DNA of 33,888 bases from a virus (Duplodnaviria; Heunggongvirae; Uroviricota; Caudoviricetes). Below, piece after piece: positions 23,639-30,282 of this stretch; the first letter of the stretch is position 1, and every line of letters begins with the position of its first letter. The stretch lies in IMG/VR virus record IMGVR_UViG_2585427782_000001; one strand, written 5' to 3'. The translations under genes and the position numbers were made by a program. Under the pieces are notes generated by a model. The model worked only from the letters and a program-made list of their open reading frames with translations. It had not been told where the DNA came from and ran no database searches.

Positions 23639-23675
23639 GCTTCACCTCCGCAGAGGTCAAACGTTGGATGCAAAG

Positions 23676-23796
23676 AACCACAGGTGCATTTCTGCATCAG
23701 TGAAGGGAGAAGAGAGTTTGGATTGTATGTGCGCATAAACGTCCCCGTTTAGCGCAGAAGTCACCGGAGTTGTTCAGGCTCCGATGACATGATTAT
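23676..23796. repeat. direct repeat copy 1 (~120 bp), left boundary of the inserted module
   Basis: About 80-85 percent identical to 26062-26181 by eye, including an identical 18-mer caggtgcatttctgcatc and shared blocks gggagaaga, agtttggattgt, cataaac, ccccgttt, gtcacc, gttgttca, tgatgacatga. Confidence 0.8.
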
Positions 23797-23822
23797 GGCG
23801 GGTTGATTATTGAAAATCAAAG

Positions 23823-24500
23823 TTAATCGTACGAGTCGAGTATGTTCTGAAACGCCCAGCCATCCTCCTTAGGAACACAAGACAGAATCGAATGAATTAG
23901 ATCCCCTGCGGAAAGAAGTAACCCTTCTTGCCCTTCAAGAAAATAACGCCATTTAGGTCCATGAAACAGATTGTTCCGTAACCGGAAACAAACGAACAAG
24001 CACACTGCAAGCTGAGTCTCAGGCTCGGTTGTCATAGCTTGCATGGCTGAAAAATAGTCATCTCTCGCCTTTTGAGAGGTGTGGTGTAATTCCCCGCATA
24101 GGCTTTCAAACTTGCTTTTATCATTTACATAGCGTTCTGAAAAAAAATCGTATGTACACTTGAGAACCCCCAGATCCACAACCTCCATTTGCAAAAGACG
24201 ATTGGCATATTTCGCACTTTTGCCTTGCCCCCCAGCGCAATTAAGAAGTAGAGACTCGAAGAAAGAGAAGTACAAAAAATAACGATTAACGGCTGTAAGG
24301 ATAGATGGGGTAATCCTGCCTTCTGCATTAATCAACTCGTCAAATTCTGATGAAAAATCCAACTGTTCATCCTTTTCCATTATATTCGGCCATTTATTGA
24401 TATTGCACATCAGTCGCTCTTGGCAATGACAGGTTTGCTCTCGGTAATGTCTCAAACGCCCCAAAAAGTAGTCTCGCAAATGCTCTAGTTGCTCGCGCAT
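23823..24500 (-). CDS. hypothetical protein with HEPN-like R-x4-H motif (candidate RNase / abortive-infection effector)
   Basis: 225-aa ORF in an AT-rich insert; contains ..CFRLRNNLFHGPKW.. (RNxxxHG-type motif); no RBS at the annotated start, so the true start may be internal (M31 or M41). Confidence 0.35.
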   Translation of the reverse strand: MREQLEHLRDYFLGRLRHYREQTCHCQERLMCNINKWPNIMEKDEQLDFSSEFDELINAEGRITPSILTAVNRYFLYFSFFESLLLNCAGGQGKSAKYANRLLQMEVVDLGVLKCTYDFFSERYVNDKSKFESLCGELHHTSQKARDDYFSAMQAMTTEPETQLAVCLFVCFRLRNNLFHGPKWRYFLEGQEGLLLSAGDLIHSILSCVPKEDGWAFQNILDSYD

Positions 24501-24626: not shown

Positions 24627-24652
24627 AAAAAACCCCTCAATCATCTGAGGGG
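24627..24652 (-). terminator. intrinsic terminator after the 66-aa ORF
   Basis: Minus-strand RNA CCCCUCA-gaugau-UGAGGGG followed by UUUUUU. Confidence 0.55.
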
Positions 24653-24660
24653 ATTAGACA

Positions 24661-24861
24661 TCATTGCTTCCAATACTTTTGAACCCGGATATTCATTGGC
24701 ACACAAACATTTTCATAGATAGGGCCGCTAACAGTCATGACTATATAAATACCATCAAGACCATCAATATTAAGCGAGAGTCTATCTCCGGCTCTAACCT
24801 CACGCTCTAGTTCAATATCTTCTACTCGTCCAGTATCATCGAAAGTCACTGAATACATCAT
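24661..24861 (-). CDS. small hypothetical protein
   Basis: 66-aa ORF between the Bro-N gene and the terminator; no recognised family. Confidence 0.3.
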   Translation of the reverse strand: MMYSVTFDDTGRVEDIELEREVRAGDRLSLNIDGLDGIYIVMTVSGPIYENVCVPMNIRVQKYWKQ

Positions 24862-25632: not shown

Positions 25633-25788
25633 AGTATCACCTCATCAGGTTAACCATCACCACCAACGACGCCAATCGACTGGTGGTGAACTGTGCAAGG
25701 TTGGCGTAACCGGCTACTCAAACCCGGCGCTCCCGAAGAAGCCCTCACACAGCCCACCATAATTTGGGCGTAGCCGTGCTTAGCGCAT

Positions 25789-25809
25789 AAAAAAACCGCT
25801 TAACGCGGT
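25789..25809 (-). terminator. intrinsic terminator between the promoter-like element and the Bro-N gene
   Basis: Minus-strand RNA ACCGC-guuaa-GCGGU followed by UUUUUUU. Confidence 0.5.
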
Positions 25810-25869
25810 ATGCGTTGAGTAGTATTCCGGGACGCCAATCCCGTGTGCCGATTTTGCGGCAACGCACAG

Positions 25870-25899
25870 AATATAGCGCCGGATAAATAATGTCGTCAA
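25870..25899 (-). promoter_or_regulatory. sigma70-like promoter candidate (TTGACG-18-TATATT)
   Basis: Minus strand -35 TTGACG (plus 25894-25899), 18-nt spacer, -10 TATATT (plus 25870-25875); predicted transcript would reach the 25789-25809 terminator after about 75 nt. Confidence 0.35.
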
Positions 25900-26061
25900 C
25901 CCTTGCAAATGGGTGGCGCGATGATCACTACTACCACTATAACCGCTCCAACTGTTGCAACTACTTTAGGCCAAGACATCAAGATCTCCATATCACCTTT
26001 AGCTGCGAAACGAACAGAGGTTCCCATCTCTATACTGCCGAGGCCAAACACCGAATATAAA

Positions 26062-26181
26062 AACCGCAGGTGCATTTCTGCATCTATGACGGGAGAAGAT
26101 AGTTTGGATTGTGTGGGCTCATAAACTCCCCGTTTGGTGCAGTAGTCACCGTAGTTGTTCATATTCTGATGACATGATAAT
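26062..26181. repeat. direct repeat copy 2 (~120 bp), right boundary of the inserted module
   Basis: See copy 1 at 23676-23796. Confidence 0.8.
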
Positions 26182-26381
26182 TTCCTATTGAATAGAAAAA
26201 ATTAACACTACTCATTCTTATGACTGGAAAAAGCAATCATGCTAATAATCATTGTTGTTCCAGTTCCAAATGCAGCGAAATAATCACTAATATTTTTTTT
26301 CTACCGGTTTCGACTTTGATGCTATATTCTGCCAACACCTAACTAACACTACGTTTCACACAGCAATTACATGGAAATAAC

Positions 26382-26729
26382 ATGACTATCAAAGCGACTG
26401 ACATAGAGATTCTTCATCGTTATGCTGAAGGGGTAATGGAACGTTCTAACCATCATGCAAAAAATGTTGGTGCAGCCGCTCTTACATTGCTAGGAGGTGT
26501 TATCTGGAAAGCCCTGCCCGGCTCAATCGAGATAAGAACTTATAACGGAAGTCTTGCAAATATGGTATGGTGGAAAAGCGAAAGTACATTAAAAAATTAT
26601 GCAATATCATACAACCATGATTCATGTGAAATTGAAATGAGAGATGGATCAGTCAAAGGTGCTGTTTTGTTTAGCATTTCCAACAAAACTACTCCAGAAA
26701 AAATATTATCACAGCTTTCTGAACTTTAA
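26382..26729 (+). CDS. hypothetical protein on the opposite strand in an AT-rich island
   Basis: 115-aa ORF convergent with P; a GC-rich hairpin (26735-26752) lies just after its stop; no recognised family. Confidence 0.4.
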   Translation: MTIKATDIEILHRYAEGVMERSNHHAKNVGAAALTLLGGVIWKALPGSIEIRTYNGSLANMVWWKSESTLKNYAISYNHDSCEIEMRDGSVKGAVLFSISNKTTPEKILSQLSEL

Positions 26730-29488: not shown

Positions 29489-29592
29489 AACAACCTCCGT
29501 GGTTAATTTGAATCAAAATTAAAACTATGGTTGTTTTTAGTCAACAACTATTTTCGTTTGATGGAATAAAACCTTGGTTGTACATTTGGACT
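29489..29592. promoter_or_regulatory. divergent pR / pRM-like promoter and operator region
   Basis: Minus strand: TTGACT-17-TAATTT then GGAGG and the cro ATG. Plus strand: TTGATG-17-TACATT ending 6 nt before the cI ATG (leaderless-like). Palindromes ttaatttgaatcaaaattaa (29503-29522) and GTTGTT-N7-AACAAC (29530-29548). Confidence 0.55.
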
Positions 29593-30282
29593 ATGAAAAC
29601 AACACTCTCAGAAAGACTTAAAGAAGCCAGATTAGCGCGAGGCCTTACACAAAAGGCGCTTGGGGATTTGGTCGGGGTTAGCCAGGCTGCTATTCAGAAA
29701 ATCGAAACAGGGAAAGCTAATCAAACAACTAAAATCGTGGAGATCGCGAACGCTTTGGGTGTGCGCGCAGAATGGTTATCTTCTGGCGTTGGAAATATGT
29801 CAGACAGTACAGTGCAACCAATACAATCAACTGTCAGCCATTCCAAATACTTTAAGATTGACGTTCTTGATATAGAAGTGAGTGCCGGGCCGGGAGTCAT
29901 CAACCGTGAGTTTGTAGAAGTTCTACGCTCGGTTGAGTACTCGTTTGACGATGCTCGTCACATGTTCGATGGTAGGAAGGCAGAAAATATCCGCATCATT
30001 AACGTACGCGGTGACAGCATGTCAGGAACGATCGAACCAGGTGACCTTTTGTTCGTTGATATCACTGTTAAATCTTTCGACGGTGATGGTATCTATGCGT
30101 TTCTGTACGACGACACAGCCCATGTAAAGCGCCTGCAAATGATGAAGGATAAGCTGCTCGTTATCTCTGATAACAAGAGTTACTCACCGTGGGACCCGAT
30201 CGAGAAAGACGAGATGAACCGGGTATTCATTTTCGGGAAAGTCATCGGGAGCATGCCGCAGACGTACAGGAAGCATGGGTAA
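29593..30282 (+). CDS. CI-type repressor (HTH plus LexA-like S24 peptidase domain)
   Basis: MKTTLSERLKEARLARGLTQKALGDLVGVSQAAIQKIETGK (HTH) and ..VRGDSMSGTIEPGDLLFVD..HVKRL.. (Ser/Lys dyad region); start set at the internal ATG at 29593. Confidence 0.9.
   Translation: MKTTLSERLKEARLARGLTQKALGDLVGVSQAAIQKIETGKANQTTKIVEIANALGVRAEWLSSGVGNMSDSTVQPIQSTVSHSKYFKIDVLDIEVSAGPGVINREFVEVLRSVEYSFDDARHMFDGRKAENIRIINVRGDSMSGTIEPGDLLFVDITVKSFDGDGIYAFLYDDTAHVKRLQMMKDKLLVISDNKSYSPWDPIEKDEMNRVFIFGKVIGSMPQTYRKHG

Follow-up and report, generated by a model that had tools for sequence, protein, structure and literature searches.

A predicted IsrK-type RNA as the probable first element of a P1 immI-like switch in an Escherichia coli lambdoid prophage

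Introduction

The order of elements in the immI region of phages P1 and P7 was reportedly set out by Citron and Schuster in 1990 as P51b, a1 and b1, c4, a2 and b2, icd and ant. The C4 RNA is matured from a precursor by RNase P, and a CCA-like 3' end is needed. In P1, icd lies between c4 and ant and couples translation to Rho-dependent polarity, via which the system partly acts. In the immI region of P22, the antisense RNA sar controls ant.

A related arrangement has been characterized in Gifsy-1 of Salmonella Typhimurium (Hershko-Shalev et al. 2016, PMC4825925). There, the isrK transcript either stops at a terminator, which yields an Hfq-binding small RNA, or reads through to form the isrK-orf45-anrP mRNA (PMC4825925). 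The isrK promoter drives anrP by this terminator read-through, and the long RNA is translationally silent (PMC4825925). Short IsrK supplied in trans was shown to activate the translation of orf45 and anrP approximately 100-fold, and expression of anrP was shown to increase expression of the antiterminator antQ (PMC4825925). A stable processed RNA, STnc1160, is found at the position of C4, and the authors likened IsrK to seqA and STnc1160 to CI of P4 (PMC4825925). The nucleotides of orf45 are conserved and its amino acids are not (PMC4825925). In Salmonella lysogens, IsrK and STnc1160 were highly transcribed under all conditions tested (PMC7067206). IsrK and P1 c4 have been reviewed as separate entities (PMC12197685), and literature searches returned no description of an IsrK-type RNA upstream of the ant genes of E. 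coli or of Stx phages.

This report examines a short unit upstream of a Bro-N gene in a stretch of phage DNA of 33,888 nucleotides, which as a whole is called the window. A sequence-only reading of the window had described the unit as a promoter followed closely by a terminator. The case is made here that this unit probably opens a switch for immunity and induction, similar to that of P1 immI, in a lambdoid prophage of E. coli. The subject bears on annotation and on how prophage induction in E. coli is understood. More distant relatives of the module are found upstream of ant in many Shiga-toxin phages, in which both the induction of toxin phages and immunity to superinfection could be affected by an antirepressor under RNA control.

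Genomic context and related loci

The window represents an E. coli lambdoid prophage. The 951 nt that were queried are 99.9% identical to strain 2022CK-00450 (NZ_CP104681), and the identity to phage IdasGreatGrand is 97.6%. Features discussed below lie on the minus strand unless stated otherwise. A YdaT-domain gene comes first in the listed gene order, ahead of the replication genes, which are an O-like gene (28652-27633) and P (27636-26935). Between P and the module made up of the IsrK-type and C4 RNAs lies a VCH_CASS14 gene on the opposite strand. The module is followed on its 3' side by the Bro-N/P22_AR_C antirepressor-type gene (25632-25024), and this in turn by two ORFs without an assigned function and a gene in the position of ninB, named ybcN by RefSeq in the matching genome. 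Q (22237-21548) is located 3.4 kb downstream of the module, and a CI-like S24 repressor is encoded on the plus strand (29527-30282). The count of tRNA and tmRNA genes in the window is zero. Direct repeats of 147 nt flank the cassette, which begins just ahead of the promoter and runs to the end of a 225-codon ORF.

Neither isrK nor the C4 RNA is annotated in the matching RefSeq genome. Both RNAs are also unannotated in the phage records examined, and in those of cdtI, mEp460, ST64B and Ayreon a long CDS is annotated straight through the C4 RNA.

A sensitive DNA search with the 271-nt module matched 266 phage records, mostly of Stx-converting phages, and 644 of 5426 complete E. coli genomes had the module, or a part of it, at an identity of at least 80%. 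Comparisons were made with 14 diverse loci, comprising Stx phages, SfV-like phages (cdtI, mEp460, ST64B, Ayreon), the Uetakevirus type and one Salmonella phage, and additionally with P1 immI. The order of promoter, IsrK, terminator, C4 and antirepressor recurs in these 14 other phage loci and in P1; in the Stx phages the module is placed between ninE and ant. Above threshold, C4 was detected in 14 of 14 loci and isrK in 13 of 14, with a spacing of 18-26 nt. The downstream gene is always of the antirepressor type, and its domains vary (Bro-N, ORF6N with P22_AR_C, or Rha).

The promoter, the terminator and the IsrK-type RNA

The near-consensus promoter that had been noted upstream of the Bro-N gene is present. 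This sigma-70 promoter, PisrK (25899-25870), consists of the -35 element TTGACG (25899-25894), an 18-nt spacer and the -10 element TATATT (25875-25870); it matches 10 of 12 consensus positions and is the top promoter-like site in the 6 kb scanned. Transcription is predicted, from the position of the -10 element, to start at about 25863. The terminator noted together with it was likewise found. About 55 nt after the promoter, a 5-bp hairpin (ACCGC-GUUAA-GCGGU, 25809-25795) and a U7 run ending at 25789 make up a Rho-independent terminator (25809-25789), the hairpin of which has a ΔG of -7.4 kcal/mol. Such a weak stem is compatible with partial read-through. In a close relative, an A-U pair of the stem is replaced by G-U. 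The statement that no ORF fits between promoter and terminator was a fair one: only mechanical ORFs of 40 and 42 codons overlap the unit.

Promoter, terminator and fold, when considered alone, amount to no more than chance. In 6 kb, 10 promoter-like sites were observed against 8.7 +/- 2.9 expected from shuffled sequence, and 10 terminator-like sites against 6.0 +/- 2.4; the fold of the 82-nt unit had a z-score of -1.96 relative to shuffles. These figures would agree with a functionless chance juxtaposition of a promoter-like and a terminator-like site. That explanation is refuted by the comparative data, namely an Rfam E-value of about 1e-11, a layout kept in 15 further loci and extensive compensatory changes, and its probability is close to nil. 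The case for a real unit is thus built on the Rfam isrK match and on conservation and covariation across loci, not on site counts.

At curated thresholds, an Rfam scan of the whole window gave two matches only, isrK and C4, which are adjacent and 24 nt apart. The isrK match (RF01394) covers 25861-25789 and model positions 1-77, with 60.7 bits against a gathering score of 50 (E = 8.7e-11). Because this score exceeds the curated threshold, the unit is classed, by its sequence, as an IsrK-type RNA and a member of a known Rfam family. The predicted RNA (25863-25789, about 73-75 nt, from the Rfam match and the promoter) would also be the 5' leader of a read-through transcript; its start was placed from the -10 position and its 3' end is the U7 run. 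As is typical of the isrK family, it has two 5' hairpins, a single-stranded linker, a Rho-independent terminator and its own predicted promoter, and it is placed upstream of C4, a 36-codon ORF and the antirepressor gene, with complementarity to the C4 region. In a permissive scan, the Rfam family RF03163, "a1, b1 targets of C4" (c4-a1b1), was matched at 25876-25824 with 40.6 bits (E = 1.9e-8), below the cut-off of 46.7 bits that is passed by four Stx-phage loci and P1. Rfam assigns isrK to no clan.

Hairpin 1 (25861-25846, UGCCG-CAAAAU-CGGCA) is paired in 92.3% of the cells of the 15-sequence alignment, and six of its seven pairs are compensatory, with changes on both sides. Hairpin 2 (25843-25828, CGGG(A)...(U)CCCG) bears box a1, described below, in its loop; its stem is 100% paired across 15 loci and is represented by the second hairpin in the isrK model of Rfam. 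Of the two inner stems proposed in the sequence-only reading, CGGGA..UCCCG is this hairpin 2. The other, GUGC..GCAC (25868-25865 with 25846-25843), is unsupported, since it lies partly upstream of the predicted transcription start and competes with the conserved hairpin 1.

Across the 15-sequence alignment, pairing is kept in 95.1% of structure cells and 24 of 51 pairs show changes on both sides, a result reached by none of 500 shuffles. In a control in which the partner was slid by 1-3 columns, only 37-43% were paired. The first T of the -35 element and A2, A4 and T6 of the -10 element are invariant in the 15 aligned loci, among which three promoter sequence types occur, and the promoter holds the same position in all loci compared. 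A hairpin (5-7 bp, ΔG -6.5 to -11.7 kcal/mol) with a run of U5-U7 is found at the same place in 14 of 14 loci including P1. This terminator comparison was an anchored analysis of each locus; the MAFFT alignment mis-registered the short stems, and RNAalifold then gave no structure. Strong comparative evidence thereby argues that the unit is real and functional.

An outer helix (25814-25784) is formed across the U-run by CGCAU (25814-25810) and AUGCG (25788-25784), and is possible in the read-through RNA only. It is predicted in the minimum-free-energy fold of the long leader. The outer flanks pair, with differing sequences, in 12 of 14 loci including P1 (cognate score 87 against 64.5 +/- 3.8; 0 of 2000 permutations).

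The C4 RNA and the antirepressor gene

The sequence-only reading had offered two interpretations of the unit, a small RNA or a terminator-controlled leader of Bro-N. By homology, both would hold. What had been missed is an 86-nt C4-type antisense RNA (25764-25679) ahead of the Bro-N gene, which was matched by Rfam RF01695 with 72.7 bits against a gathering score of 45. C4 would be the central regulator of the module. Its stems are 100% paired across 15 loci, with compensatory changes at 6 of 17 pairs of the outer stem and at all five pairs of hairpin 1, and its 3' motif CCACC does not vary among the aligned sequences. Placed in register with the 77-nt c4 RNA that is annotated in P1, the mature C4 is predicted at 25758-25682 (77 nt).

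An ORF of 36 codons (25760-25650) begins at an AUG in the 5' end of C4 and ends at a UAA (25652-25650) located 17 nt ahead of the antirepressor AUG. Given the predicted register of mature C4, the 5' cut would fall inside this AUG. A conserved small protein encoded inside C4 was considered and ruled out, since all three reading frames are in use across loci and the ORF is fused to the downstream gene in some of them. Between C4 and the antirepressor gene there is no icd-like ORF, the gap from the C4 match to the AUG being only 46 nt; such an ORF is missing in the lambdoid comparator loci too. Without it, the Rho-coupled step known from P1 may not apply.

The antirepressor-type gene (25632-25024) encodes 202 amino acids with the domains Bro-N (PF02498, E = 4.2e-10) and P22_AR_C (PF10548, E = 9.9e-17), and RefSeq names its product "P22AR C-terminal domain-containing protein". 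To judge from these domain families, the product may act as an antirepressor. Its initiation region (25643-25621) comprises the Shine-Dalgarno (SD) sequence GAGG (25643-25640), the AUG (25632-25630) and a short segment, box b2 (25628-25621), that is shared with the IsrK-type RNA.

Complementarity among IsrK, C4 and the antirepressor leader

Three RNA segments are linked by two short boxes, named here by the P1 convention as annotated in NC_005856. The IsrK-type RNA carries box a1 (UUGGCGU, 25838-25832) in the loop of hairpin 2 and box b1 (CUACUCAA, 25822-25815), a copy of the target at the antirepressor start site, in the single-stranded linker. Box b' (UUGAGUAG, 25721-25714) forms the loop of C4 hairpin 2, and box a' (ACGCCAA, 25707-25701) lies in the C4 3' junction. 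The antirepressor mRNA leader carries box a2 (UUGGCGU, 25675-25669) 4 nt after the C4 match, and box b2 (CUACUCAA) occupies codons 2-4 of the antirepressor gene, positions +5 to +12. The core boxes CUACUCAA and UUGGCGU have their complements in the loop and the junction of C4. The minus strand of the window (33.9 kb) has only two sites for the 10-mer GAUUGGCGUC, one in IsrK and one at 25677-25668, and only two for the 9-mer ACUACUCAA, at 25823-25815 and 25629-25621; the complement of ACUACUCAA has a single site, in the C4 loop. All six boxes are kept in three E. coli relatives of 94-96% identity, in which the few stem substitutions preserve pairing.

The complementarity is maintained as the sequences change. 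Pairing in the long-range a1:a' helix is 100% over 15 loci, and six of its seven pairs show compensatory changes. Box a2 is found 1-7 nt after C4 in 16 of 16 loci including P1, where it is the exact complement of the a' box of its own locus (six types). Box b could not be aligned by column and was assessed with a permutation test on the longest complementary runs and with exact-word counts. The 13 distinct b' loops gave a longest-run sum of 109 with their own b1 (69.1 +/- 2.9 for non-cognate partners) and of 121 with their own b2 (83 +/- 4), neither of which was attained in 2000 permutations. This test replaced a matrix of duplex energies from short loop probes, which was noisy, three non-cognate leaders having equalled the window loop's own. 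Co-folding of the full RNAs gained 0.0 kcal/mol for IsrK with C4 and -2.0 kcal/mol for the leader with C4; these and the RNAduplex energies are uninformative because co-folding does not model loop-loop contacts and duplex scoring takes no account of intramolecular structure. This analysis established the parts and the families to which they belong, along with the three-way complementarity and its covariation. The 13 loop types and six junction types resemble immunity specificities of the kind that distinguish P1 from P7.

These data also bear on whether IsrK might be an independent, Hfq-dependent small RNA that acts in trans on host mRNAs and lies upstream of the antirepressor gene only incidentally. 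The unit possesses a promoter of its own and ends in a Rho-independent terminator whose tail is U7, Rfam describes the isrK family as Hfq-binding, and other prophage small RNAs have been shown to act on host RNAs (PMC4104026). However, both exposed segments of IsrK repeat the antirepressor-leader boxes exactly and covary with C4 over 13 specificity types, so that the constraint on IsrK is explained by local partners. An independent role of this kind is accordingly rated as improbable, and regulation of host mRNAs could be an additional function of IsrK.

The boxes can be related to the genetics of Gifsy-1, where the silent conformer needs the pairs G28:C162 and G31:C159, both genetically proven (PMC4825925). 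With the window RNA numbered from 25863, the counterparts are G28-C161 and G31-C158, both of which are G-C pairs of a1:a'. The Gifsy-1 pairs thus map onto a1:a', which identifies the published "helix b-I" with the a1b1:a'b' pairing. This suggests that the publications on isrK and those on C4 deal with a single system. The minimum-free-energy fold of the window's 259-nt leader preserves both the IsrK hairpins and the C4 fold, and in the centroid the middle of IsrK pairs instead with b'/a' of C4. The two predicted folds would correspond to the two published Gifsy-1 conformers.

Could the boxes of IsrK act in cis only? In such a leader, a1 and b1 would function within the precursor, for instance through a long-range helix with b'/a' of C4 that times C4 folding or processing, or through the tuning of termination, and the short RNA would be a by-product. 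The centroid just described pairs IsrK with C4 in cis, the P1 annotation labels a1 and b1 as no more than "putative" target sites, and the conserved helix that closes the terminator exists in the read-through RNA only, which points to a role for the long form. Against a purely cis-acting leader, Gifsy-1 IsrK provided in trans raises anrP translation about 100-fold, and IsrK mutations act oppositely in cis and in trans (PMC4825925). In addition, the terminator with its U-run is kept in 14 of 14 loci, and the short RNA is abundant in Salmonella lysogens (PMC7067206). A role confined to cis is therefore viewed as unlikely.

The position of b2 distinguishes the lineage of the window. Elsewhere, in 15 loci, the start of b2 lies 22 to 6 nt ahead of the AUG, and the box usually overlaps the SD. 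A b2 after the AUG is found in this lineage only and is identical in the three relatives of 94-96% identity. In the window, b2 is off the SD, yet still within a ribosome footprint, and the pairing there comprises 8 bp only. This pattern suggests re-targeting in the lineage, in which b2 moved from the SD into codons 2-4 and the C4 loop and the IsrK linker changed to match. If true, the lineage shows how the specificity of a switch can be rewired after a change of cargo gene.

A model for the control of the antirepressor

By analogy with P1/P7 and Gifsy-1, the following steps are proposed: termination and read-through, processing of the RNA, a block of translation, the action of IsrK as a decoy, and an effect on induction. 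Transcription would start at about 25863 from the sigma-70 promoter (25899-25870), and most transcripts would end at the weak terminator (25809-25789) as an IsrK-type RNA of about 73 nt that displays a1 and b1. Read-through transcripts would carry C4, probably matured to 77 nt, and the Bro-N/P22_AR_C antirepressor mRNA. Boxes b' and a' of C4 would pair with b2 and a2 and occlude the ribosome-binding region, so that the antirepressor is silenced, whether it is encoded by the prophage or by a superinfecting phage that shares its specificity. Since IsrK has the same two boxes, it would compete for C4, in cis through an inactive long-range helix and in trans as a short-RNA decoy. The window IsrK may thus exist as a short terminated RNA and as a read-through mRNA, with the short form binding Hfq and activating translation in trans, as in Gifsy-1. 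If short IsrK rose in relation to C4, the start site of the antirepressor would become accessible, and the protein could go on to inactivate the repressor of the prophage and promote induction.

The model places control in RNA-RNA pairing at the antirepressor translation start, which the sequence favours over antitermination that depends on Q or N. The contrary proposal is a plain attenuator, in which expression of Bro-N needs a phage N- or Q-type antitermination at the hairpin; it would call for a nut or qut site and for read-through that depends on the antiterminator. The unit does belong to the early-right/nin region and shares its strand with O, P and Q, where antiterminated early transcription would probably cross it in lytic growth, and the IsrK promoter has been described as regulated by antitermination (PMC7547250). 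A plain attenuator, however, is at odds with the unit's own predicted promoter and leaves C4 and the covarying boxes without a role. Moreover, read-through from PisrK of Gifsy-1 without induction gave 280 Miller units of transcription and 4 units of translation (PMC4825925). With transcription on and translation off, control in Gifsy-1 appears to be mainly post-transcriptional. Attenuation as the sole control is considered very improbable.

In its full form, the pairing model states that IsrK is the terminated a1/b1 leader, that orf45/STnc1160 is the C4 RNA, that the IsrK:C4 ratio, set via read-through, decides antirepressor translation with IsrK as an anti-antisense decoy, and that the switch was re-targeted in this lineage. 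Confidence in the whole of this statement is evenly divided. When the orf45/STnc1160 region of Gifsy-1 was expressed constitutively along with IsrK, growth arrest became stronger and not weaker (PMC4825925). This co-expression result and the missing icd-like ORF do not fit well with a simple model in which C4 represses and IsrK titrates.

Comparison with known systems

One of the closest parallels in organization is Gifsy-1. Both loci have a three-hairpin RNA of about 75 nt with its own promoter, a leaky terminator and a read-through mRNA, these being predicted from sequence in the window. In both, the antirepressor gene is preceded by a structured RNA in which a short ORF is embedded, beginning approximately 104-107 nt from the start site, and the 36-codon ORF of the window is the positional counterpart of orf45. 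The two differ in several respects. The antirepressor of the window has Bro-N and P22_AR_C domains, whereas the Salmonella-type and Stx-phage genes examined have ORF6N, with or without P22_AR_C. In the window, 17 nt separate the end of the short ORF from the AUG of the antirepressor gene, whereas in Gifsy-1 the two overlap as AUGA. The isrJ gene, which follows anrP in Salmonella, is absent downstream of the module in the window. The module of the window is preceded by P and followed by the nin genes, and Q lies 3.4 kb downstream of it, whereas antQ of Gifsy-1 is upstream of isrK. Finally, b2 lies inside the coding start in the window, unlike in Gifsy-1.

With P1/P7, the window shares the order of parts, the C4 fold including its CCACC 3' end, and the predicted mature length of 77 nt. 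Also shared are a box directly after C4, a box at the ribosome site of the next ORF and upstream decoy copies of both. The P1 record (NC_005856) lists the series P1c4 promoter, a1, b1, c4, a2, b2 and gene, and its note on the homologous promoter reads "sigma 70 promoter P1c4; corresponds to former P51b". P1 too has a hairpin and a U-run between b1 and c4, with the same flanking helix. The isrK model scores only 35.1 bits in P1, where the terminator loop is 10 nt. The target of C4 in the window would be the antirepressor start directly, whereas icd intervenes between c4 and ant in P1. A second promoter under the control of the C1 repressor is particular to P1, and the antirepressor protein families of the two differ.

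Further likenesses are seen in P4 and P22. The CI RNA of P4, which belongs to the same clan as C4 (CL00128), is a processed stable RNA with target copies on both sides (seqA and seqC); it acts through premature transcription termination of replication genes and not through a block of antirepressor translation. In P22, as would be the case here, a small RNA holds a P22-type antirepressor untranslated, and the protein of the window bears P22_AR_C; sar, however, is a true cis-antisense RNA from the opposite strand, without the C4 fold and without decoy copies. The module therefore consists of known families, represented by Rfam isrK and C4, P1 immI and the Gifsy-1 isrK locus, and nothing in it is mechanistically new. 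What the window adds to them is a minor variant in target placement, with b2 in codons 2-4 of the antirepressor gene.

A helix spanning the IsrK terminator

The terminator of the IsrK RNA is bracketed by a second pairing. On the minus strand, the 5 nt before the terminator hairpin (25814-25810) pair with the 5 nt after its U-run (25788-25784). This terminator-flanking helix was found at the matching position in the comparison loci L002-L009, L011-L013 and L015, and in the immI region of P1 (L016). The sequences of the flanks vary among the loci while their complementarity is kept. In a permutation test, pairing of each flank with its own partner scored 87, versus 64.5 ± 3.8 with the partners of other loci (0/2000). 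The helix needs the 5 nt beyond the U-run and is therefore able to form only in the read-through RNA. It may serve as a processing site or as a stabiliser of this long isoform.

Reading frames overlapping the C4 RNA

The read-through RNA also carries the C4 RNA, in which a 36-codon ORF is embedded. The AUG of this ORF lies at 25760-25758, and the 5' end of C4 is predicted at 25758. If C4 matures to 77 nt as it does in P1, cleavage at its 5' end would fall inside this AUG, and the ORF could then be translated from the unprocessed precursor only.

Longer reading frames have been annotated over C4 in SfV-like phages. In Ayreon (L008 1121-1957), cdtI (L011 1121-2269), mEp460 (L013 1075-2226) and ST64B (L014 1092-2249), a single long CDS is drawn over C4 and also over the terminator of IsrK, under names such as "immunity region," "transcriptional regulator" and "Sb41." In cdtI, mEp460 and ST64B, the AUG at the 5' end of C4 shares the reading frame of the Rha gene that lies downstream; in Ayreon, the frame shared is instead that of a short 77-aa ORF. 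The CDSs drawn over C4 in these phages are probably over-annotations.

Boundaries and neighbours of the module

Two direct repeat copies of 147 nt (window 23673-23820 and 26059-26205; 76-85% identical, 2386 nt apart) enclose the remainder of an 88-codon ORF together with isrK, C4, the antirepressor gene and two ORFs of 66 and 225 codons. This repeat-flanked cassette looks like a mosaic boundary, with the entire module exchanged between the P and nin genes. The stretch that separates the P gene from the isrK module carries, on the plus strand and thus opposite to the module, a 115-aa ORF (26382-26729) assigned to VCH_CASS14, an integron-cassette family (Pfam PF18315, E = 4.7e-21).

The 225-codon ORF (23823-24500, minus strand) is located at the cassette end and is without a Pfam family. 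E. coli 2022CK-00450 is otherwise 99.9% identical, but in its corresponding stretch (L001 5571-7036) the annotation shows an IS421 transposase gene and, in place of the ORF, only a short hypothetical CDS of 303 nt. As read from the annotations of these stretches, our guess would be that the ORF is interrupted by an IS in this strain.

In the Stx2a phage WGPS6 (L002), an Rfam match to sRNA-Xcc1 (2253-2336; 73.5 bits, cut-off 53) follows a partial antirepressor pseudogene and lies directly upstream of an intact ant. Downstream of the antirepressor gene in the window, the 66-codon ORF (24661-24861, minus strand) is followed at its 3' side by a strong terminator-like site (24633-24652, minus strand; 8-bp stem and U6), which is probably the operon end. 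The sRNA isrJ is absent from the window, unlike in Salmonella phage SW-37, where isrJ lies slightly more than 400 nt downstream of a truncated antirepressor ORF of 61 aa.
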